Assembly (NCBI GenBank): GCA_963731795.1
Contig: CAVSWU010000003.1
Coordinates: 1,158,216-1,222,215, forward strand
DNA: 64,000 nucleotides
Direction: 5' to 3'
Source of the DNA: an uncultured delta proteobacterium
GTDB taxonomy: Bacteria; Myxococcota; Myxococcia; Myxococcales; Myxococcaceae
Part shown: piece after piece, positions 3,104-61,697 of the stretch
Numbering within the stretch: position 1 is the first letter of the stretch
Layout: each line of letters begins with the position of its first letter
Notes under the pieces: generated by a model
What the model saw: the letters and a program-made list of their open reading frames with translations, nothing else
Told to the model about the DNA's origin: nothing
Database searches by the model: none
Made by a program: the position numbers and the translations under genes

Positions 3104-3346
3104 CTCGTGCACTCCTTGGGGTGGGCACGCGAATGGCCGCGCGTGTGACGGCGGGGAGAGCAATCCAACCTTATAGGTTGGGCGTCCGGCATCCTACCAG
3201 AAAGCGCATATTCCAGCGCATCAGCCGTGTTCCCAGGTAGGAATGACGGGAAGAACCTCATGGGTCGTCACCCTACCAAGGGGGGCAGACATTCCCTGCC
3301 CTACCCCCGCTGTCCAGGGCCGAACTCCGCGCCGTATCAAGAGAAA

Positions 3347-3370
3347 CGGCTCCCGCCGGAGCGGGAGCCG
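3347..3370 (-). terminator. GC-rich hairpin (10-bp stem, 4-nt loop) followed on minus strand by TTTCTCTT
   Basis: cggctcccgc-cgga-gcgggagccg perfect inverted repeat; T-rich tract on minus strand. Confidence 0.35.
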
Positions 3371-3676
3371 TCCCTGTGCGACCCAACCCCTTGGGTCCTA
3401 CTTCTTTACGGGAGTGATGCTGATGACGTCTCGAGCGAGCAGGTCATCCCCATCCGTCACGTGGGAGGCGCGCACCTCGGAGCCCTTGACTGGGAGAGGA
3501 CCACCAGCACGAGCGAATGGCCCGTGGTGGAGCGCATGCGCCCTGGATGGTGTCGCTCGTGGCCACGGTAGTCGCGTTGTCGTGACGCAATTCAGGAGCG
3601 CTGCCCGCCTCAAGGGCGCCAGCCAGGCGGCCGGGCCCTCTCAAGGCTGCTCGCGCTTACCGAACGGGGGGAGCCT

Positions 3677-4241
3677 TCATTTCCCTCCGTCCGTGCCTCC
3701 GTCCAGCCCGCCATCTGCGGTGCCGCCATCCGCGGTACCGCCATCCGTGTTGCAGAAGGGAGCCCCACCCTCTGCCCACTGCCCGATGATCGCTCGCTCC
3801 TCTGCGGTGGGCGCGGGGTTGCCCACGGGGGGCATGTCCTTGAACTTCGCTGCGCGCACATCGATGCGGGGAGCCATCTCCATGGCGCCCTTGATGCCTG
3901 CATCGGACTCGTACATGTCCAGCCGGAACTCGGGATGGCCGCTGCCGGTGTGCACGGCCCCGTGGCAGCTCTGGAGGCAGTAGTTGGCGAGCAGGGGCTG
4001 GACGTCCGCGCACCAGGTGGGCACGGGCCCAGGCGCGGGACCGCCCGCATCCACGACATCCGGCAGCGCCAGCACCTCACAGGTCCGCCCTGCGCCAGGG
4101 CGCGCCGCCACGCACACGTACGGGTCCGGGCAGTCCGCCACGACTCTCGCAGTTCTTCCCGGCGAAGTCGCTCACCGAGACGACGCAGCCCACGACGGTC
4201 ACGACAGCGGCGACGCCCACACTGACGAAAGCTCTTTTCAT
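3677..4241 (-). CDS. PSCyt1-like (planctomycete cytochrome c-like) domain lipoprotein, paralog 1; frameshift near 4145
   Basis: Signal/lipobox MKRAFVSVGVAAVVTVVGC in ORF 4077..4268(-); domain ...WCADVQPLLANYCLQSCHG...GSGHPEFRLD...MPPVGNPAPTAEERAIIGQWAEGGAPF in ORF 3677..4141(-); aligns residue-by-residue with paralog 2. Confidence 0.6.
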
Positions 4242-4264
4242 GGCTGGCTCGGTTGCTCCCCTCA

Positions 4265-4787
4265 TCAAGGAGTGCCCCCATCATCACAGAAAGGTGCCCC
4301 GGCCACCGCCCACCGCCCCAACACCGCACGCTCGGCATCAGTCGGGGCCGGGTTGCCCGTAGGCGGCATGGTCCGCAGATCGAAGGCGCGGACCTTGATG
4401 CGAGGGGCCATGTCCTTGGCGCCCTTGGGCCCCCCTCCGTCAGGCGGCTCGTAGTAGTCCAGCCGGAAATCGGTGTGGCCACTGCCCGTATTCACTTCCC
4501 CATGGCAACTGGAGACGCAGTTGGCGGCGAGGATGGGCTGCACATCCCGACAGTACGTGGGCGCCACGCCCGGCATCCGCGCCCCCATCGGTGCCACCGG
4601 CCGAGGACGGCGGATAGATGATCTCGCAGAAGCGCTGGTACTCTGGCCCACCGCAGACATAGTCCTCGGGGCAGTCCGCGTCAGCCGAGCATGCACGGCC
4701 CGCGACCTGGTCCTGGGAGATGATGCAACCCGCGGCCGTCAGCACGGCCGCAAGCGCAAGAAAACCACCTGTCAGCCTTGCGTCCAC
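4265..4787 (-). CDS. PSCyt1-like domain lipoprotein, paralog 2; frameshift near 4570-4590
   Basis: Lipobox MDARLTGGFLALAAVLTAAGC in ORF 4440..4787(-); domain ...YCRDVQPILAANCVSSCHG...GSGHTDFRLD...MPPTGNPAPTDAERAVLGRWAVAGAPF in ORF 4265..4696(-). Confidence 0.6.
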
Positions 4788-4796
4788 GCGCCCTCT

Positions 4797-5237
4797 TCAG
4801 AAGTGGTAGGTGAGGCTCGCCGCGTCAGCGGCTGGCTCGGGAAGGAATTCCAGCAACAGGCCGTAGGCGACCGTCAAGCCCGCCAGCCCATACATCATGT
4901 TCGAGGTGGCGGCAGCCGTACGCGCCCGGTCCAGCGCGATGCGGGCGTCGCGGGCCGTCTCCAGGCTCTCCGCCCGCTTCGATTCTCCCCGCGCGAAGAA
5001 GCCGAACCCCACGCCTCCGAGCAGCAAGACGCCGCCGGCGACGTAGGCGTAGCGATGCCCGTGAATGAAGGGCTCGGGCTCACGCGTGGGCGCATCCAGC
5101 GCCGCGGCGGGCGCCGAGACCGGCGCGGCCTTCGACTCCTGAACGGGCTTGGAAGCCTTCGGTTCAGCCGCTGCGGCGGGCAGGGCAATCGTCAACGCCA
5201 GAACGGAAGCCGCAAGCTGGCGGGTCGCAGTGTGCAT
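4797..5237 (-). CDS. hypothetical signal-peptide/membrane protein
   Basis: Internal start MHTATRQLAASVLALTIALPAAAA (signal peptide) within ORF 4797..5570(-); hydrophobic segments; good GC3 usage; ends ...SLTYHF. Confidence 0.45.
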   Translation of the reverse strand: MHTATRQLAASVLALTIALPAAAAEPKASKPVQESKAAPVSAPAAALDAPTREPEPFIHGHRYAYVAGGVLLLGGVGFGFFARGESKRAESLETARDARIALDRARTAAATSNMMYGLAGLTVAYGLLLEFLPEPAADAASLTYHF

Positions 5238-5345
5238 GGCAGCCAGTATAGCGGGCCCTTCATTCGCTGCAGCAGGTCTGTGCGCGTTGACAGCAAGGGA
5301 GAGCACTTGTACTGCGTCGGCGTCCAGGCCAAGGAGCGAACAGCG

Positions 5346-5549
5346 GTGGAGGTATGGGTCAACGGAGAAACACGTGAGGTGCCCGAGGGAACGACCCTCG
5401 CGGCCCTGCTCGAGCTGCTGCGCATCGGTGGAGGCCCAGGCGTGGCGGTCGAGGTGAACGCGGAGGTGGTCCGCCGAGCCCGCCACCCCGAGCACCGCCT
5501 CCAGCCTCAAGATCGCGTGGAGATCGTCACCTTCGTCGGTGGCGGGTAG
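5346..5549 (+). CDS. thiS: sulfur carrier protein ThiS
   Basis: C-terminal 67 aa of ORF 4473..5549: VEVWVNGETREV...VAVEVNAEVV...DRVEIVTFVGGG (ThiS fold, GG terminus); putative GTG start; immediately upstream of thiG. Confidence 0.6.
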   Translation: MEVWVNGETREVPEGTTLAALLELLRIGGGPGVAVEVNAEVVRRARHPEHRLQPQDRVEIVTFVGGG

Positions 5550-5558
5550 GAGAACACA

Positions 5559-6341
5559 ATGAGCACTCAAGACACCCCCTTCACCCTCGCGGGGGTCACC
5601 TTCCAGTCACGGCTCATCGTCGGCACGGGCAAGTACCCGAGCCACGAGGTGATGAAGCGCTGCCACGAGGCCTCCGGCGCGGAGATGGTCACCGTGGCGG
5701 TCCGCCGCCTGGACCTGAAGGCGCGCGGCGAGGCGTCGCTGATGCACTGGATCGACACCTCGCGCATGCGTCTGCTGCCCAACACCGCCCTCTGCTACAC
5801 CGCCGAGGACGCCGTGCGCACCTGCCGGCTCGCCGAGGAGCTGGGCATGAGCAAGTGGGTGAAGCTCGAGGTGCTCGGGGATGAGAAGACCCTCTACCCG
5901 GACGTCGAGGAGACGCTGAAGGCCGCGCGCATCCTCGTGAAGGAGGGCTTCACCGTCCTGCCCTACACCACCGACGACCCCATCACCGCTCGCAAGCTGG
6001 AGGACCTGGGCTGCGCCGCCGTGATGCCGCTGGCGGCGCCCATCGGCTCGGGGCTCGGCATCCGCAACCCGCACAACATCCGCCTCATCCGCGAGATCGT
6101 GAAGGTCCCCGTCATCGTCGACGCGGGCGTGGGCACGGCCTCGGACGCGGCCATCGCCATGGAGCTGGGCGTGGACGGTGTGCTGATGAACACCGCCATC
6201 GCTGGCGCCAAGGATCCGGTTCGCATGGCCGTCGCCATGCGCAAGGCCGTCGAGGCCGGCCGCGATGCCTTCCTCGCGGGCCGCATCCCTCGCAAGGCGT
6301 ACGCCACCGCCTCCAGTCCCCTCCAGGGGCTCGTCGAGTAG
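5559..6341 (+). CDS. thiG: thiazole synthase ThiG
   Basis: 260 aa, strong ThiG similarity (…LIVGTGKY…[14 protein letters not shown]…). Confidence 0.9.
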
Positions 6342-6949
6342 TGCCCGCCGCCCCTCGGCTGATCGTCATCACCGACTGGCGGCTTCCTCGGGCTCGGCTG
6401 CTCTCGGCGCTCGAGCGCGCGCTGGAGGCAGGGCCCGAGGTCGCGGTCCAGCACCGCCACCCGGAGGCCTCCGCGCGCACCTTCCTCGAAGAGGCGCGGT
6501 GGCTCGCGGGGTTGTGCCACGCGCGAGGCAATCCGCTCTTCGTCAACGGGCGGCTGGATGTGGCGCTCCTGGTCGGCGCGAACCTGCACCTTCCCGCCCA
6601 AGGTCCCCCGGTCGAAGACGTCCGCCCTCACCTCCCCGCCGGGCGACAGATCAGCGTCGCGGTCCATGACGAGCAGGAGGCCCGAGGCGCCCGAGGCGCC
6701 GACCTGGCGCTGGTGAGCCCCGTGTACTCCCCGGGCTCGAAGCCGGGAGATACCCGTCCCCCGTTGGGCCCCGCGGGCTTCCAGGCGTTGGCGGCAGTCC
6801 TGAGCTGCCCGGCCCTGGCGCTGGGGGGCATGTCCCCGGAGAGAGCCCCCCTGCTTCCGGGCGCATATGGCTTCGCGGTCATCTCCGCTGTCCTGGAGGC
6901 GGAGGATCCAGCCGCCGTGGCCCGCGCCCTGCTGCGCGCGTCCTCCTGA
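6341..6949 (+). CDS. thiE: thiamine-phosphate synthase ThiE
   Basis: 202 aa; TMP-TENI family features; start overlaps thiG stop. Confidence 0.8.
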   Translation: MPAAPRLIVITDWRLPRARLLSALERALEAGPEVAVQHRHPEASARTFLEEARWLAGLCHARGNPLFVNGRLDVALLVGANLHLPAQGPPVEDVRPHLPAGRQISVAVHDEQEARGARGADLALVSPVYSPGSKPGDTRPPLGPAGFQALAAVLSCPALALGGMSPERAPLLPGAYGFAVISAVLEAEDPAAVARALLRASS

Positions 6950-13096: not shown

Positions 13097-14640
13097 TCAC
13101 CCCGTCCCGCGGGACCGCATTCCCGCCAACACTCGCAGCGGCCGGATGCCCGTGGCGTACAGCACCGCGACGTATCCGATGATGAACAGCAACCCCGCGA
13201 CCGCCAGCGGCAGCACCCGCCAGAAGAAGCCCTCGGGCAGCCTCACCCATGCGCTCTCCGTGCCTGCTCGCAGCGCGAAGATGCCAACCGCCGCCGCGAC
13301 CGCCGCCAGGGCCGCCTTGCCCAGCTCCACCCACGGGATGACATCCCGGACTCGCAGCGGCCGCTCCGGCGTGGACAGCGCGGCGGGCACTCGCACCAGC
13401 AGCGTCGCCTTGCCCACCATCTCCGCGATCCCCCACGAGGCGATGCCGCCCTTCATCCCGAACCGGTGCACGCCCCACCACACGAGCGGCACCGTCACCA
13501 CCGCCTTGATGAGGTACGAGATGAAGATGGAGCGGGTGTGCCCTCGGGCGCGCAGCACGCCATCCATCGGCAGAATGGACAGCACCACGCCCAGCACGCT
13601 CACCCGGAAGATGGGCACCGCGGGCAGGAACTTCGCGCCGAAGAGCGCGGCGATGAACTCGGGCGCCGCGGCGAAGAGGAACGCCGCGAAGGGCAGGAAC
13701 ACGAAGGCGAGCTTCCCCGCCGCCTCGCGGAAGGCCACCACCCCCTCCTCGAGCCGGCCCGCCTTCTCCAGCTCGCCCAGGCGCACCATCAGCACCTCGC
13801 TGGTGGGCGTGTAGAGGAGATCCACCACCGGGAGCTGGAAGCAGCCCACCCGATAGAGCGCGTACAGCGCCGGAGCCACCGCGCTGCGCCACCACGATAG
13901 AGGTGCGCGTTCTGCTGCGGAATCGAGAGCGCCATGGCCGCGCCGAACGGAGCCGCGTACACGAGCTGCTCGCGCAGCAGCGGCCCATTCACCAGCGGCC
14001 CGGTCGAGCCCCGCGCAGCGCGATCACCCAGGCCGCCAGGTAGCGCAGGCCGCGCGAAGCCGGCCACCGCCACCATCATCCCGTGCAGCGAGGCGCCCAG
14101 CAGGCACGGCACCACCATGACCAGCCGCGCGCACGGCGTCCGACACCAGGTACACCACGGCCGACTGCCGCGTGCGCCCCTGGCTGGTGAGGGACATCTC
14201 CAGCGGGAACGCAGCCGATCAGCAGCGCCGGTGTAGACCGCCAGCGGCAGCCGGTAGTGCAGCAGCGCGGGGTTGGAGAACCAGCCCGGCCACCGGCCCC
14301 AGCAGCACGGCACACCAGCGCCGCGGCCACCACGCCCGCCGCCGGTCATGAAGAGCAGCGCCTGGCCCAGGTAGGGCCGCTTCTGCTCCGCGCGCGGCAG
14401 GAAGTAGTAGAGGCTCTGCACCACGCCGAACGGCAGGACGTAGTAGAGCGTCGTGGCGATGAGGAAGAGCTGGTAGTACGTCCCGTACTCCTCGAGGCGC
14501 GAGCACCCGCGCGAGCACGAGCGGGATGGACAGCGTCAGCCCGGCGGTGAAGAGCCGGGCCAGCACCAGGGGGCCGGCCTTGCCCAGGAAGCTCCCGGAC
14601 GCGGCCGGCGCCGGGGATGCGCTCACGTGGCTTCTCCTCT
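13097..14640 (-). pseudogene. Wzx-like polysaccharide flippase (MOP superfamily), at least 3 frame disruptions
   Basis: C-terminal half intact in ORF 13097..13879(-); N-terminal pieces (…GKAGPLVLARLFTAGLTLSIPLVLARVL…, …VQSLYYFLPRAEQKRPYLGQALLFM…) lie in ORFs 14219..14683(-) and 13789..14424(-) in different frames. Confidence 0.6.
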
Positions 14641-15863
14641 CCGACGAGGCTCGCCTCCGATGCGCAGACCGCTGGGCGGCCACCGGCGCGCGACACGTGC
14701 GGGCGCTTGCCCAGCACCGGGTGGCTCACGCCCAGCACGCCGAAGCAGTCGTCGAGCTGGCACGCCGGTGAGCGTCGTCGAGTAGTCCCCCAGCATGCCG
14801 ATGCTGAAGTTCTCCCACAGCACCTTGCGCTTGAGGGTGAACGGATCCCCGCCGATCCGGTTGGGCAGGTCCTCCGTGGTCACCGCCGAGCGGAACCCGT
14901 GGGCCGCCAGCACGCGGATGACCTCGTCCGAGTACCAGCCGTTGCAGTAGGCGAAGTCCACGCACCGGGCTTGCTCCAGCTCGCGCTCGATGGCGCGCTT
15001 GGACTCGACGGATCTCGCGCTCCACCACCTCGGGCGGCTCCAGCGTCAGCACGGTGTGGCCCAGCGTGTGCGCGCCGAACTCGAAGCCGTCCCGAGCCAT
15101 GCGGCGCACCTCGTCCCAGTCCATGATGTCGCCCTGCTCGGGCATGAGGTCCGCGGCCGCCGCCCAGCTGCTGCTCCAGCGCGTCGATGACCTCCGCGAG
15201 CGACGCGGCCGGGTGCTCGCCGATGAAGTCGTCCAGCGCGCGCCGAGGCCGTCTTCTGCCCGGAGAGGATGGGCTCGAGCAGCTCAGTCGCCGGCGCCGG
15301 CAGCGCGCGCGAAGTAGGGCCGGAACCGCCGCTCCTTCGCATGCCGCACCAGGTGGAAGAGCCGATCGTGGTTGAAGCGCCGGTCCGTGCCGATGAAGGC
15401 CGTGGGCAGGTAGATGATGGCGGGCACGCCCATCCGCTTCAGGACGGGGTAGGCGTACCGGTACACGTCCCGGTAGCCGTCATCGAAGGTGACGACGCAC
15501 AGATCCTGCTTCGCCGCCCTGCGCGCCCGCCATCACGTCCACCGCGTCGCCGATGGAGGCGAACTCGTAGCCCGCCGCGGCGGCCTCCTCCAGGTGCCGC
15601 CGGAACGTCTCCTGGGAGATGAGCAGCCCGGGAATGGAGCGCTGCAGCTCGCCTGTGAAGTCCTCCACCACGCGGTGGTAGCTGACGATGAGGATCCGCC
15701 GCCCACCGGACTGGCCTCGGCGGTACGCCGCCAGCGCCTTGCGCAGCCCGCTGTAGTGCAGCAGTCCCGCCGCCGCCACCTTCACCGCCCGTCCGCACCA
15801 ACCGACCCGCCCCCATGACCTTCCCCATGCGCAGAGAAACTCTCGCCGGGTCGATAAATGCAC
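14623..15863 (-). pseudogene. polysaccharide deacetylase (NodB-homology, CE4), at least 3 frame disruptions
   Basis: Fragments LIVSYHRV… (15480..15863), YRYAYPVLKRMGVPAIIYLPT (15284..15466), …FEFGAHTLGHTVL… (14726..15145), C-term MDFAYCNGWYSDEV… (14623..14961) each in a different frame. Confidence 0.6.
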
Positions 15864-16121
15864 GGGCGGTGCCAGCCCGGGCCAGCGACTACCGCACAGT
15901 GGGGACGTTCCCGAGGCAGAGCCTGTGCCACCCCTGAAACAAACGGGCCCCTCCGTAGAAAAACTTTCCCGATCCGGGTCCCGTCATGCAGGAAACGCCG
16001 CAGCGTGCCTGGGAAGGCGTGTCGCCCTGCTGCCCAGACCGCCGCCAGGCAGGGGAGCGTCCCTGTCAAGCCCGCTTTCACTGGAGAAAGGCGCGATTTC
16101 CAGTTACGAACGCACCCCTCG

Positions 16122-26889: not shown

Positions 26890-27997
26890 CGCGCCACCAC
26901 CTGTCTTGCCGTGGGGACCCACCGGAACTTCGCCGCGCCCAGCGCGCGCGCGAAGGCGGAGTCGTTGAAGAGGAAGAGCCAGTGGTGGCGCCGGACCTTG
27001 TCCGTCCAGTCGCGCTTCCACACCATGTCCGGCCCCAGGAAGTCGAACTCGCGCAGGCCGCGCGAGATGCAGTCCCCCAGCACCTCTTCCATCAGGAGCT
27101 GGCCCGGGCTGCACTCCTTGAGGCTCTCGTCGTAGCCGGGCTTGAGCAGGAAGTAGCGCTCGCCGTAGGTGAGGCCGTACTGGAAGGCCACCGGCGCGCC
27201 CATCCAGGCGCAGGTAGTAGAGCGACAGCCGCCCCGAGTACGCCGCCTCCCGCGCCAGCTCCGTGTAGAAGCCGCGCGTGCTCGCGTCCTGCGCCATCGC
27301 CGTGCCGCGCTCGCCCTTCCAGCCGCTCTGCTCGAGCGCGAAGCCCTCCTCCAGCTTGCCCTCCAGGTCCAGGCCGCCGTCCACCCGCTCGAACTCGACC
27401 TTGCCCTTCTCTTCCAGCTTCTTGCGCCGCCGCCGGCAGTTGGCCTTGAACTTGGACTGCAGCGTGGCCTGGTAGGCCTCGAGCGTGGCGGGCAGCGGCA
27501 CGTAGGGCGACTGGAGCGAGTCCCAGACTCCCGTGGACAGCCCCGCGCTCCTGGCCTCCTCGAGCAGGCTCCAGCCCGCGCCGCCCTCCGGCACGTCCGT
27601 CAGCCGCAGCACATCCCAGTCCCGGCTCATGCGCAGCCAGGCGAGGAACATCGCCGCGGCCGCCTCCGGCTCGCGGGCGATCAGATCGAACCGGCACGAG
27701 TGCGGATTGGCCGTGGCCGAGAGCTGCCGCACGGGGAGGCCGTACATCGTCGTGCGATCGGCCATCAGCGGCAGCGCCGCCGCCAAGCCGCCCCTCGGCG
27801 TCCCGCAGGGTGAGCACCCGCAGCCGCGCCGAGGGCGCGAAGTTGTCGATCCAGATGCGCAGGAACTCGTGGCGATAGAAGAGCTCGTTGGAGGTGGCCT
27901 CCACGAGCGCATTCCACTCGGGCTCGAGCGCCATGAACGCGGCCCGGTCCGTGACCTCCTGGACACTCGGCGCGGGCGTGATCTTTCTGGCTTCCAT
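26877..27997 (-). CDS. GNAT-fold CelD/FemAB-like acyltransferase (ExoG-like); two frame disruptions (~27760, ~27200)
   Basis: N-term MEARKITPAPSVQEVTDRAAFMALEPEWNALV… (ORF 27092..28048), middle in ORF 25711..28026 frame, C-term …FDFLGPDMVWKRDWTDK… in ORF 26877..27203. Confidence 0.65.
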
Positions 27998-28001
27998 GTG
28001 T

Positions 28002-29147
28002 TCAGGACTCCCGAAGGCGCGGACACCTCGGGTGCCGCGCGCGTGCAAGGTGGGAACGGCCGGGGCTGGCTACAAGCCAGCTGCGAGCCATCTTCAGCAG
28101 GCAGCGAGCAACCTTCCGGCTGTCGTGTCGGATCTTGGACCCCTCCCTGAGGAGATCCGCCTCCACGGGGACGACGCCAGCGGCGATCAGCTCGCGGCGG
28201 TTCACCGGGATGACAGAGGCGCCCTTGTGCGAATAACGCTGGATGGCCTCCGGCGGAGGAGGCTTTCCGTTGATGAGCACCGCATCCAGCACCGGGCCCG
28301 CGTGCTCGATGACTGCTCGGACGTGGTCCAGGCAGTCCATGCCGTCCGTCTCCCCAGGCTGGGTCATGAGGTTGGACACCATCACCTTGAGCACCCGCGT
28401 CTCGTTCAGCGCCTGGGCCACGCCATCCACCAGCAGGTTGGGGATGACGCTCGAGTACAGCGAGCCCGGCCCGATGACGATGAGGTCCGCGGTGTGGATG
28501 GCCTCCAGCACCCCCTCGGAGGGCGGCGGAGAGCGCGGGCTCAGCGACACCCGGCGCACGTGGCCCTGGGCGCGGACGATGTTGCGCTCGCCCACCACCT
28601 CGGTGGCGTCATCCATCTTCGCCACGAGCTGCACCGGGGCCAGCGTGCACGGCAGCACCCGCCCCCGCGCCCCCAGCATCTCCTCGGAGACGCGCACCGC
28701 CTCCAGGAAGTCCCCCTTGAGCTCCGCCAGCGCGGCGATCAGCAGGTTGCCCACCGCATGCCCGGCCAGCCCCTTGGCACCGCCGAAGCGGTACTGGAAC
28801 ACCTGCGCGAGCGTGCTGTGGCCGCCCGCGAGCGCCACCAGGCAGTTGCGGATGTCCCCCGGTGGCAGCACCCCGTGCGAGCGGCGCAGCCGGCCCGAGC
28901 TGCCTCCGTCATCGCTCATGGTGACAACGGCGGTGATGTCCACGCCGGGATCCCCCGCCTTGGGTTCAGCCCGCCGAGCCAGTCCTCGGAGCACCACCGG
29001 CAGCCCTGTGCCACCGCCCATCGCGACGATGCGAGTAGGGCGATCCACGTGCGGCTTCAGCAGCTCGTTCCGCCCCTGCTGCCGGGCGGTCTTCGCATCC
29101 TTGCCCCGCGTCTCCTGGAGAGACGAATCCAGATCCACGACCGACAT
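28002..29147 (-). CDS. YvcK/CofD-family gluconeogenesis-factor-like protein (ExoF-like)
   Basis: …RIVAMGGGTGLPVVLRGL…ITAVVTMSDDGGSSGRLRR…DIRNCLVALAG… UPF0052 signature. Confidence 0.8.
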   Translation of the reverse strand: MSVVDLDSSLQETRGKDAKTARQQGRNELLKPHVDRPTRIVAMGGGTGLPVVLRGLARRAEPKAGDPGVDITAVVTMSDDGGSSGRLRRSHGVLPPGDIRNCLVALAGGHSTLAQVFQYRFGGAKGLAGHAVGNLLIAALAELKGDFLEAVRVSEEMLGARGRVLPCTLAPVQLVAKMDDATEVVGERNIVRAQGHVRRVSLSPRSPPPSEGVLEAIHTADLIVIGPGSLYSSVIPNLLVDGVAQALNETRVLKVMVSNLMTQPGETDGMDCLDHVRAVIEHAGPVLDAVLINGKPPPPEAIQRYSHKGASVIPVNRRELIAAGVVPVEADLLREGSKIRHDSRKVARCLLKMARSWLVASPGRSHLARARHPRCPRLRES

Positions 29148-58037: not shown

Positions 58038-60249
58038 TCAGATGCGCTCGACGGAGTGCACGCCGCTGAGCCGTTCAATGGCGCGCATCAAGTCGGTGAG
58101 CTGCTTGAGATCGGAGATCGTCACTTCGAAGGTGTTCACCGCGCGATCATCCCCGGTGGCCCGGCAGTTGGCCTGGGAGATGTTGACGCCCTTCTTGGAG
58201 AAGGTGTTGGAGATGTCGGCCAGCAGGCCGGGCCGGTCCGCGGTGAGCACGCGCAGGGTGACGGGCCGCTTGAAGTCGCCCCGCACGTCCCAGGACACGT
58301 CGACGCGCCGCTCGGGATCCGTGGCCAGGGACTTCTCGCACTTGTCCGTGTGCACGGTGACGCCGCGCCCGCGGGTGATGAAGCCGACGATGGGATCTCC
58401 CGGGACGGGGTTGCAGCAGCGCCCGAAGCGCACGAGCACGTCGTCCACGCCGCCAATCTGCACGCCGCTGCGGCTGGTGCGCCCCACGAGCCGCTTGGCC
58501 AGATCCGTCACCTTGGACAGGCCCGGCAGCATGGAGGAGCCGCCGCCGTCCCCACTGGAGGGGGCGGTGCTGGGCGCGGGGCGCTCCTCTGAAGCCAGCT
58601 TCTCCTGGGGCACGAGGCGCTGGGCCAGCTGCTGCGGCGTCACCTTCCCGTAGCCGATGGCCACCAGCAGATCGTCTTCGATCCGGTAGCCCAGCTCCTC
58701 GGCGGCCTTCTTCAGCTCGCCGTTCTTCGTCAGCTTGTTGAGGTTGCACTGGTAGCGCTTGAGCTCGCGCTCGGCCAGCTCGCGCCCCAGCTGCAGGCTC
58801 TTGTCGCGCTGCTGCTGCTTGATGAAGTTGCGGATGCGCTGCTGGGCGCGGCTCGTCTTGACGAAGGTGAGCCAGTCCTTGGACGGGTGCGCCTGCGGGC
58901 TGGTGAGCACCTCCACCATGTCCCCGTTCTTCAGCTTGTAGCGCAGCGGGACGATCTTCCCGTTCACCTTGGCGCCCACGCACCGCCCGCCCACGTCCGA
59001 GTGGACGGCAGTAGGCGAAGTCCACCGGGGTGGCCCCGCGCGGCAGGCTCTTCACGTCCCCCTTGGGGGTGAAGACGAAGACTTCATCGGTGAAGAGGTC
59101 CACCTTCACCGTCTCGAGGAACTCCTTGGGATCCTTCAGGTCCTGCTGCCACTCCATGAGCTGGCGCAGCCAGGCGAACTTCTCGTCGTCCTTGGAGATG
59201 AGGACCTTGCCCTCCTTGTACTTCCAGTGCGCCGCGATGCCCTCCTCGGCGATCTTGTGCATCTCCGGGGTGCGGATCTGCACCTCCACGCGCTCGCTCA
59301 GCGGGCCGATCACCGTGGTGTGCAGCGACTGGTACATGTTGGGCTTGGGGATCGCGATGAAGTCCTTGAAGCGCCCCGGCACCGGCTTCCACAGCTGGTG
59401 CACCAGGCCCAGCGCCTCGTAGCACGAGGGCACCGTGGGCATGAGGATCCGGAACGCGATGATGTCGTGGATCTGATCGAACTCGATGCCCTGCTGCTTG
59501 ATCTTCTTGTAGATGCTGTAGACGTGCTTGAAGCGGCCGCTGACGTCCCCCTTCAGCCCGCGCTCCTCCAGCTTGGAGCGGATGAGGGCGCTGGTGTCGT
59601 CGATGTACTTCTCGCGCTCCTTCTTGCGCTTGTTCAGCTTCTCCTGGAGGTTGAGGAACTCCTGGGGCTTGACGTAGCGGAAGGACAGATCCTCCAGCTC
59701 GATCTTGATCCAGCTGATGCCCAGGCGGTTGGCCAGCGGGGCGTAGATGTCCAGCGTCTCCTGGGCGATGCGGGCCTGCTTCTCCTCGGACATGTGGTCG
59801 AGCGTCCGCATGTTGTGCGTGCGGTCGGCCAGCTTCACCAGGATGACGCGGATGTCCTGCGCCATCGCGATGATCATCTTCCGGAAGTTCTCCGCCTGCT
59901 TCTCCTCCTGGGAGAGGGTGGCGGAGGCCGAGAACTTGGAGAGCTTGGTGACTCCATCGACGAGCTGGGCCACCTCGGGGCCGAAGAGCTCGGTGAGCTC
60001 CTCGGCGGTGGCCAAGGTGTCCTCGATGGTGTCATGGAGGAGACCCGTGACGATGGAGGCCTCGTCGAGCTTGAGCTCGGCCAGGATGCCGGCGACCTCG
60101 AGCGGGTGGACCAGGTAGGGCTCCCCGGACTTGCGGAGCTGGCCCTGGTGCACCTTGGCCGAGTAGACGTACGCCTTCTTGATGATGTCCAGATCGGGGT
60201 CCGGGTGATAGGAGGCAACCCGCTGGAGGATGTCGTTCAGGCGAATCAT
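58038..60249 (-). CDS. rel: bifunctional (p)ppGpp synthetase/hydrolase RelA/SpoT; frameshift ~59000
   Basis: HD domain (…HPLEVAGILAEL…HDTIEDT…), synthetase domain, then TGS/ACT C-terminal part in ORF 58038..58994 frame. Confidence 0.85.
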
Positions 60250-60401
60250 GGAGAAACAGAGGCAATCGTAACTTTCGTACTCAGAGGGGGCAACGTCGCA
60301 GGTTCTCTCTTGTTGAACTTGCACCCCTTGCCAGCCCCCTGCCGGAACCTGTCGCATTCGTTGACCCGACGTTTTACGCACCCCTAAAGTCGCTTTCGCC
60401 C

Positions 60402-61697
60402 ATGTCACAGCTCCTGCTGTCCGCTCTCGCCGTGGTCTGCCCGAACTGTGACGGCCACAATCCGCCTCGTACGGCGGTGTGCGCGCAGTGCGGTGCCTCC
60501 GTGGCCGAGGCACCGAGCCCTCGGGCAGCCCCTGCTCGCCCAGCGGCCGGGCAGCGGCCCCCTGTCCCTCCGGGTACCTCCGCTCGTGCAGCGCCGGCCG
60601 CCAGCGCGCCCAGGGGTGCCGAGAGTGGCCCGCCCGTTCCGCGCGCCGGAGAGGCCATCCCGCCAGGGCTGAGGCCGTCCGCCCGGGCGCCTACCCCCGA
60701 GGCCGGTGCCCATCCCGCCGAGCCTACGCCCTCCGCACGGCCCGGCCCTCCTGTGCCCACGGTGGCATCCGCCGCTGTGCCTCGTCCTGGCGTTGCCGCC
60801 CCCCACCCGCCTTCGGGCGCCCGTCCAAAGCCCGCGGATGCGCCCCCTCCCCGGCCTGGCCCTGGGGCGCGCGCGGCCCCTCCGGTTCCCGCCGAGCGTC
60901 CGGCACCTCCCATCCCCGACGCTGCCATGCCCAGAGCGGCGCCCGCCATGCCCGTGGCCGCGCCGGCGGCCCCTCCGGTGGCTGCGCCGGCGGCCCCTCC
61001 CATGGCTGCGTCGGCGGCCGCTCCCGCCGCCGCGCGACAGGCTCCCGCTGCCTCACGGTTCGGGCTCACGGTCGTCGCGGGGACGACCCGGGGACAGCGC
61101 TACAAGCTCCCGGTCACTGGCTGCGTGGTGGGCCGCAGCCGCGGGGCCATCCTCCTGCAGGAGGATGTGTTCGTCTCCGCCCTCCACGCGACGTTCCTCG
61201 TGAAGGATGGTGCGCTCTTCGTCCGTGACGAGAACAGCGCCTCGGGGGTCTACGTCACCGTCCCTGGCACCGAGGCCATCGCGCCCCGGGCCCTCTTCAG
61301 CGCGGGCTCGCGGCTGTTCCGCTTCAGCGGCCGCATCGAGATCCCCATCGCCCAGCAGGGGCAGCCGGTCATCTACGGCGCTCCCGTGCCGCTCGGGCAG
61401 GCCATCTACGCCGTGGAGGAGATCCTCGTGGGAGGGCGCGCGGGCCGCACCGTGGTGGCGGCCACCGCGCTGCTCACCATCGGCCAGGCGCACTGCGACT
61501 TCAGCTTCCCGCAGGACGAGGGCCTCGCCGGCCGGCACTGCGAGCTCAGCCCGACCGCCACCGGAGCCATGCTGAGGGATCTGTCCGGAGGCCTCGGCAC
61601 GTATGTCCGGATCGCCCCGGGCACCGAGCGCCAGCTGCGCCCCGGAGACCGCATCCGCATCGGCCAGCACGTGTTCCAGGTGGAGATGCTGGGCTGA
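60402..61697 (+). CDS. zinc-ribbon / Pro-rich linker / tandem FHA-domain protein
   Basis: CPNCDGHN…CAQCG N-terminus, ~200-aa Pro/Ala-rich region, two FHA-like modules (…GRSRGAILL…SALHATF… and …TIGQAHCDFSF…LAGRHCEL…). Confidence 0.7.
   Translation: MSQLLLSALAVVCPNCDGHNPPRTAVCAQCGASVAEAPSPRAAPARPAAGQRPPVPPGTSARAAPAASAPRGAESGPPVPRAGEAIPPGLRPSARAPTPEAGAHPAEPTPSARPGPPVPTVASAAVPRPGVAAPHPPSGARPKPADAPPPRPGPGARAAPPVPAERPAPPIPDAAMPRAAPAMPVAAPAAPPVAAPAAPPMAASAAAPAAARQAPAASRFGLTVVAGTTRGQRYKLPVTGCVVGRSRGAILLQEDVFVSALHATFLVKDGALFVRDENSASGVYVTVPGTEAIAPRALFSAGSRLFRFSGRIEIPIAQQGQPVIYGAPVPLGQAIYAVEEILVGGRAGRTVVAATALLTIGQAHCDFSFPQDEGLAGRHCELSPTATGAMLRDLSGGLGTYVRIAPGTERQLRPGDRIRIGQHVFQVEMLG

Follow-up and report, generated by a model that had tools for sequence, protein, structure and literature searches.

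Paired myxobacterial lipoproteins with a class-I-type cytochrome c domain and a candidate C-x3-C-H haem site

The locus described here raises a twofold question: what do two adjacent and apparently interrupted lipoprotein genes of a myxobacterium encode, and are they in fact interrupted in the organism? The genes, which we call copy B (the upstream paralogue) and copy A (the downstream one), lie on the minus strand of the window, by which we mean the whole stretch of DNA analysed (64 kb, 69% G+C, from an uncultured member of the Myxococcaceae), and were read by three-frame translation. The original prediction had seen in them tandem small lipoproteins of the PSCyt1 (PF07635) cytochrome family, with a variant haem-binding motif and a frame break in each. 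We consider it probable, if well short of certain, that the pair forms part of a conserved myxobacterial three-gene unit in which a small exported or membrane protein is followed by copy B and copy A, that both paralogues are monohaem lipoprotein cytochromes with C-x3-C-H (CX3CH) as their attachment site, and that the breaks are errors of assembly.

Copy B (4265..4787, minus strand) runs from a GTG start at 4787 to a stop at 4265-4267 and yields 173 amino acids once a single extra base near 4572 is removed; its first frame reads VDARLTGGFLALAAVLTAAGC...ADAG and the text resumes in the +1 frame as VAPTYCRDVQPILAANCVSSCHG...MPPTGNPAPT...GAPFCDDGGTP. Copy A (3677..4241, minus strand) begins with ATG at 4241, ends with a stop at 3677-3679 and encodes 187 amino acids after removal of an extra base at 4143, its first frame being MKRAFVSVGVAAVVTVVGC...GKNCES and its +1 continuation VADCPDPYVC...NYCLQSCHG...MPPVGNPAPT...GAPFC...GGK. 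In a pairwise alignment the frame-corrected proteins share 51% identity across 156 residues (E 8e-50), which bears out the earlier description of two adjacent paralogous lipoproteins of about 170 residues; the motif string quoted in that description, including C-x3-C-H (CLQSCH in A, CVSSCH in B) and MPP, is likewise present in both. Intact orthologues were found for each copy. The closest related locus, L001, comes from a Hyalangium metagenome-assembled genome (MAG) with ~91% DNA identity to the window; its copy B is a single frame with 86% identity at the protein level, and its copy A (93%) and the homologue P0002 (90%) are both unbroken.

Each protein begins with a signal peptide and a lipobox of the form [LVI][ASTVI][GAS]C. 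In copy A the start, MKRAFVSVGVAAVVTVVG, leads directly to Cys19 of V-V-G-C (4185..4196, minus strand), giving a predicted mature N-terminus of C-V-V-S-V-S-D, and in copy B VDARLTGGFLALAAVLTAAG leads to Cys21 of A-A-G-C (4725..4736, minus strand) and a mature C-I-I-S-Q-D-Q. The lipobox Cys is invariant among 74 homologues, and some sources call these homologues 'Lipoprotein'. Beyond the lipid-anchored Cys there follow a four-Cys mini-domain with the spacing C-x5-C-x5-C-x10-C and a predicted beta-hairpin, a Gly/Pro/Asp-rich linker, and a domain of ~95 residues that carries C-x3-C-H and M-P-P. The alignment of the 74 family members leaves invariant the lipobox Cys, the four mini-domain Cys, C77, C88-x3-C92-H93, M136-P-P, W155 and C163, with C77 immediately preceding the cytochrome domain and C163 just after its end. 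On the minus strand of the window, the putative haem attachment site with its proximal His is CLQSCH at 3962..3979 in copy A (C88, C92 and H93) and, by the family alignment, CVSSCH at 4502..4519 in copy B. The putative distal Met ligand lies in the M-P-P motif at 3827..3835 in copy A, which aligns with RMP or RMPP of the dihaem cytochrome FoxE, and on the same basis at 4361..4369 in copy B.

The arrangement is conserved well beyond this genome. We fetched 33 Myxococcaceae/Archangiaceae species, and in about 25 of them the order is kept: thiE, thiG and thiS on one strand and, diverging from them, the small exported protein, copy B, copy A and, further along, a Ser/Thr kinase. Across these 33 species 55 copies of the domain were detected at the syntenic locus, every one of them with CX3CH. 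Wherever the locus is syntenic, the upstream copy always best matches B and the downstream copy A; the duplication is therefore old, and by sequence and gene order A and B are ancient paralogues. The suggestion that stand-alone duplicated lipoproteins of this type are unusual did not survive the comparison, given this synteny and the numerous single-domain lipoprotein relatives with either CxxCH or CX3CH.

What, then, is the conserved domain? Neither window protein reaches the gathering score of PF13442 (Cytochrome_CBB3), PF00034 (Cytochrom_C) or PF22297 (PccH). The best sub-threshold matches of copy B were to PccH (E 0.034, 14.6 bits) and Cytochrome_CBB3 (E 0.046, 14.5 bits), and copy A had none. 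Across the 74 family members the matches below gathering score were to PccH in 58, to Cytochrome_CBB3 in 18 and to PSCyt1 in 15 (best PSCyt1 E 9.4e-5). A profile of the domain alone, searched against 1.84 billion representatives, recovered 6407 proteins at E<=1e-3, 612 of which reach E<=1e-10, and tandem repetition of the domain, in 2-8 copies, is common among the hits. When the best 150 of these 6407 relatives are aligned, 243 domains have a CX2CH attachment site, 42 have CX3CH and three have CX4CH. Relatives with CxxCH exceed the Pfam thresholds for Cytochrome_CBB3, Cytochrom_C and PccH, whereas those with CX3CH have no match. Aligned with their CxxCH relatives, the x3 forms have one residue inserted within the motif, and the CX3CH proteins miss the thresholds of the hidden Markov models (HMMs) because that residue falls within the most heavily weighted motif.

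Comparison with solved proteins places the domain more closely. A broad mixed CX2CH/CX3CH profile, A4, searched against PDB sequences, matched FoxE (E 3.8e-9; in each of its two haem domains the alignment extends from CxxCH, by way of RMP(P), as far as the W..GA helix), followed by PccH (1.3e-4), the haem domain of the hydrazine synthase alpha subunit (1.4e-4) and cytochromes c6 (~4e-4); over bc1 cytochrome c subunits and cytochromes c6 together the values ran from 2.6e-4 to 1e-3, so that homology to solved cytochromes is evident. A search with A1, the narrow profile of the family, found nothing beyond a marginal match to PccH (E 0.36). In the AlphaFold2 (AF2) model the pLDDT score (predicted local distance difference test) exceeds 90 over residues 71-165, with helices at 76-93, 123-132 and 146-157; the modelled helical core, in which the haem motif ends the N-terminal helix, is that of the class I fold. 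A Cys-Xn-Cys-His motif and a conserved distal Met are both present, the x3 spacing being the variant. By these sequence comparisons the domain is a class-I-type cytochrome c domain whose nearest characterised relatives are FoxE and PccH. Public names of the homologues are 'hypothetical protein', 'lipoprotein' or 'conserved uncharacterized protein', and only one CxxCH member is named a cytochrome.

The identification with PSCyt1 is thereby called into question. It is true that the resemblance V.PIL...C..CHG...FRLD...MPP is real, that the 15 sub-threshold PSCyt1 matches stand, and that two CxxCH relatives pass the 22-bit cut-off of that model (P0115 with 25.8 bits and P0098 with 23.2 bits); to this extent the original prediction was well founded. 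The window proteins themselves, however, have no match to PF07635 even at E<=10 in the very HMMER comparison that the prediction had proposed, PccH and Cytochrome_CBB3 matches are commoner or stronger within the family, and PSCyt2 or PSD1 companions are absent. PF07635 moreover models 59 positions only, and FoxE, PccH and Cytochrome_CBB3 are the better anchors. We regard bona fide membership of PSCyt1 as improbable; on the sequence evidence PSCyt1 is a cousin of the pair's family and not the family itself.

The wider set of relatives offers some observations of its own. Proteins in the range P0076-P0223 (for example P0079, P0076, P0101 and P0122) carry tandem copies of the domain, reach 2304 amino acids and have Ig-like and fn3 repeats intermixed; in P0079 a cytochrome domain lies upstream of copper type II monooxygenase-like domains. 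Such fusion partners fit an electron-donor module. Three relatives of ~300 amino acids (P0082, P0091 and P0134) possess a second, different C-terminal domain with such sequences as RCGGGANNCH, CRPGCH or CGTACH and an MPP/MPT motif, and these odd Cys-His motifs may be further non-canonical haem sites. The domain family is large and poorly captured by current Pfam models.

Whether the pair binds haem is the next step in the argument. C88, C92, H93, the Met-Pro and the Trp do not vary among the 74 members, and an HMM alignment of ~300 related domains has the first Cys in 287 of 292, the second Cys and the His in 292 of 292 each, and the Met in 279 of 297. We infer that A and B are single-haem cytochromes with the haem on C-x3-C-H, because one would expect the ligand residues to drift once haem binding had gone. 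The alternative is a cytochrome-derived domain that has lost haem binding and uses the longer Cys spacing as a redox-active disulfide or metal site. It would account for the fact that the CX3CH members, the window proteins included, miss all cytochrome HMM thresholds that their CxxCH relatives pass, and it would suit an uncharacterised family of proteins rich in structural cysteines. The failure of the HMMs is nevertheless accounted for by the one-residue insertion in the motif, and the His and the Met-Pro-Pro are invariant beside both Cys in all CX3CH copies. There is also precedent for the spacing: in MmcA covalent haem has been demonstrated by mass spectrometry on a CXXXCH peptide (PMC11024163), ImcH has a putative CXXXCH site (PMC4251993), and a switch from CX2CH to CX3CH has been described within the MtrA family (bioRxiv 10.1101/2025.05.29.656830). 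We thus judge loss of haem binding to be unlikely.

The residues that flank the domain suggest an additional structural feature. Among the related domains in the HMM alignment both flanking Cys are present in 60, neither in 156 and one only in 25; this co-occurrence argues for a disulfide that would clamp the ends of the domain.

The second half of the question concerns the frame breaks. Both are present in the sequence as given, as had been predicted, and both are +1 shifts, but they do not occupy equivalent positions: that of copy A falls between the first and second mini-domain Cys (residue 33/34), and that of copy B, at residue ~73, lies past the mini-domain and linker and immediately ahead of the cytochrome domain. 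In copy A the extra base is at 4143 on the minus strand, where the window has GAGAG[T]CGTGG and L001 has GAGAG-CGTGG; its removal restores the full open reading frame, and both P0002 and L001 read CESVADCPDP across the site. In copy B the extra base, placed by alignment to L001, lies within 4570..4573 (minus strand; GCC[G]GG[C]GTGG), the exact base being ambiguous. Of 75 database homologues, two are fragments and one is the truncated call from the window itself; the others are intact at ~160-190 amino acids. In every related locus that keeps the copies each is a single-frame match.

These breaks are not isolated. A 9-kb comparison with L001 revealed about 12 window-specific one-base insertions, the breaks of copies A and B among them; others at 2146 and 1671 interrupt the adjacent Ser/Thr kinase and the next gene, both unbroken at these sites in L001 and in a second related locus, L002. 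The clearest case lies far from the pair, where an extra T (TAC[T]GCC) near 59,012 cuts relA/spoT (58041-60690, minus strand) in two midway through its TGS domain, the two fragments matching Pfam TGS positions 1-24 and 25-60. Over the whole 64 kb a crude hidden Markov scan of third-codon-position G+C (GC3) registered ~29 same-strand frame switches with no stop nearby, several of which were confirmed by inspection. Tandem repeats were sought as the cause of the many switches at 13.9-15.5 kb, and none were found there. Further break sites in the window lie at 768, 711, 660, 607 and ~55,997 and within 13,900-15,900 and 27,100-28,100, and a Dsb-like triple-thioredoxin protein, a polysaccharide deacetylase, a flippase and an acetyltransferase/aminotransferase region are also broken.

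Could the copies nevertheless be genuine, recently inactivated pseudogenes at a decaying locus from which no protein is made? The breaks are in the sequence and evidently also in the public record, which probably contains the same error and where a copy is called as a truncated product of 132 amino acids (P0001); a fourth gene of the unit is truly degraded relative to L001 and L002; and copy B is truncated or lost in three of the related loci (L011, L019 and L027). Selective decay is, however, hard to reconcile with like insertions in relA/spoT, the kinase, the deacetylase and the Dsb-like gene, which point to error. Neither copy has any lesion besides its break. The ratio of nonsynonymous to synonymous substitution rates (dN/dS), taken between the frame-corrected window and L001, is unchanged downstream of the breaks (0.19 in A, 0.26 in B) from its value for each copy as a whole (0.18 and 0.25). 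A very recent inactivation of the pair retains a small share of our confidence. Programmed +1 shifts, whether by ribosomal frameshifting or by transcriptional slippage at CGTGGCG as a means of regulating both genes, have the two +1 breaks beside CGTGGCG in their favour. No orthologue in the 33 species is broken, the positions in the proteins differ, neither site has a slippery run or an in-frame stop, and the same kind of insertion breaks unrelated genes in other sequence contexts. Given the unbroken orthologues and these unrelated genes, we rejected programmed shifting and accord it next to no probability.

Both breaks are most likely single-base insertion errors of an error-prone assembly, with the genes intact in the organism, because the same kind of insertion breaks genes throughout the window, the relatives are intact and dN/dS is low downstream. 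It is implausible that relA, the kinase, the deacetylase and the Dsb-like gene should all be broken in a free-living myxobacterium, which makes an error-prone consensus the economical reading; the breaks are best explained in this way rather than as a feature shared by the two genes. It follows that 'pseudogene' or 'frameshift' findings anywhere in the window are to be distrusted, and that frame breaks there should not be taken for biology.

We can now set out the preferred reading as a mechanism and weigh it. In each intact protein one haem c would be attached through thioether bonds to both Cys of C-x3-C-H, its iron being ligated proximally by the His and distally by the Met of the invariant M-P-P, and the invariant Cys pair flanking the domain would form a disulfide. 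A and B would be anchored in the outer membrane, facing the periplasm, and would act as one-electron carriers. Several points weigh against this picture. No family reached threshold when the two reconstructed proteins were scanned against Pfam and NCBIfam, and a Foldseek search of the AF2 model against the PDB returned nothing significant. Haem binding is inferred from conserved sequence for every member of the family. FoxE is described as ligating the haem of either domain with the conserved Met of the other (PMC10654088), and intradomain His/Met ligation in the pair is therefore not guaranteed, although by analogy with the monohaem PccH it is likely. The fourth gene beside the pair has genuinely decayed in this genome. 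Finally, three of the 12 insertions relative to L001 (4143, 4572 and 660) sit just 5' of GTGGCG, a clustering that is unexplained; GTGGCG occurs only 20 times in the 9 kb compared and may be a systematic consensus-error context.

The cross-domain ligation of FoxE also means that an A/B heterodimer remains conceivable. More speculatively, A and B might together rebuild a FoxE-type two-haem unit with swapped M-P-P Met ligands, in which CX3CH tunes haem geometry or potential or calls for dedicated maturation, the whole being a new outer-membrane-anchored electron-transfer module of myxobacteria for, as an example, extracellular or periplasmic redox chemistry with metals or oxidants. We offer this as a slim prospect.

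The immediate surroundings of the pair complete the description of the unit. Upstream of copy B, on the minus strand, lies the gene for the small exported or membrane protein (4797..5237; ~146 amino acids, ending ...SLTYHF), whose start is uncertain and whose stop precedes the start of copy B by 9 nt. Its product has a signal peptide, a Pro/Ala-rich stretch and two hydrophobic segments, and gave no match in a Pfam scan; in at least 11 related loci its gene is again found upstream of copy B. The gaps between the three genes are 9 and ~20 nt; such short gaps suggest that the small exported protein gene, copy B and copy A form one transcription unit, ended by a terminator-like GC-rich hairpin followed by TTTCTCTT (3345..3372, minus strand). 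A scan for sigma-70 promoters over 3200-5700 found nothing. Between copy A and the hairpin, at 3398..3600 on the minus strand, is the remnant of the fourth gene, of which only ...TTGHSLVLVV... and ...EVRASHVTDGDDLLARDVISITPVKK* are left, in two frames, the N-terminal half and ~30 internal codons having gone. In L001 (~5007-5544) and L002 this gene is intact and encodes a lipoprotein of ~180 amino acids that carries Lys at +2, contains a charged repeat region and has a beta domain at its C-terminus. A comparable remnant occurs in L004, and L005 and L008 lack the gene.

Lipoproteins of the inner membrane in Myxococcus xanthus are marked by Lys at +2 and those of the matrix by Ala at +7 (PMC3222651). 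Copies A and B have neither Lys(+2) nor Ala(+7), and outer-membrane anchoring, the default in that case, is accordingly what we would expect of both. The neighbours give no clue to a redox partner. On the plus strand beside the locus, thiS, thiG and thiE (5340-6949) diverge from the unit, with thiG and thiE apparently intact; this divergent arrangement is kept in most related loci and has no evident functional link to cytochromes.

If haem attachment is as proposed, the pair represents a widespread monohaem class-I-type family whose sole site is C-x3-C-H and which is annotated only as 'hypothetical protein' or 'lipoprotein'. Such proteins are overlooked by cytochrome censuses based on motifs or on HMMs. 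Together with the CxxCH sisters, they would provide a natural system for studying the effects of spacing on haem maturation and redox potential, and they would add envelope electron carriers to the physiology of aerobic, predatory myxobacteria.

How does the pair compare with known systems? PccH is a single-haem periplasmic electron carrier of Geobacter sulfurreducens (PMC13591261). It (PDB 4RLR, PF22297) gives the most frequent weak Pfam match in the family (58 of 74) and has in common with the pair the N-terminal helix motif TY..DIKPI...C..CHG, though with the broad profile (E 1.3e-4) the match to the pair's family extends no further than the first ~25 residues. PccH differs in having a canonical CxxCH and in being soluble, without the mini-domain, the flanking Cys pair or the lipid anchor. 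FoxE, with which Rhodobacter ferrooxidans SW2 oxidises Fe(II), is a dihaem cytochrome (PDB 5MAB) and the only solved protein whose sequence matches the whole domain; its haems are His/Met-ligated and it contains a structural disulfide (PMC10654088). Unlike the pair it is a fused two-domain protein with CxxCH and reported cross-domain Met ligation, and its gene belongs to a foxEYZ operon; neither foxY nor foxZ lies beside the pair, whose neighbours are the small exported protein gene, thi genes and a kinase gene, and the window proteins are single-domain. PSCyt1 modules are usually the N-terminal haem modules of large planctomycete PSCyt2/PSD1 proteins. They have a similar motif grammar, with the weak matches in 15 of 74 members and the two CxxCH relatives above threshold noted above, but their site is CxxCH, whereas the window proteins have CX3CH and are stand-alone lipoproteins of ~180 amino acids with no other Pfam domain. 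The one-residue expansion of the attachment motif is found again in MmcA of Methanosarcina acetivorans, in ImcH of Geobacter and in a clade of MtrA homologues, multihaem proteins in which the variant site is one among many canonical ones. Small periplasmic c-type cytochromes, and CX3CH sites in multihaem proteins, were thus already known. What is new here is a monohaem class-I-type domain in which CX3CH would be the only haem site, fixed in both paralogues across the clade and combined with a lipid anchor, a four-Cys mini-domain and a putative flanking disulfide.

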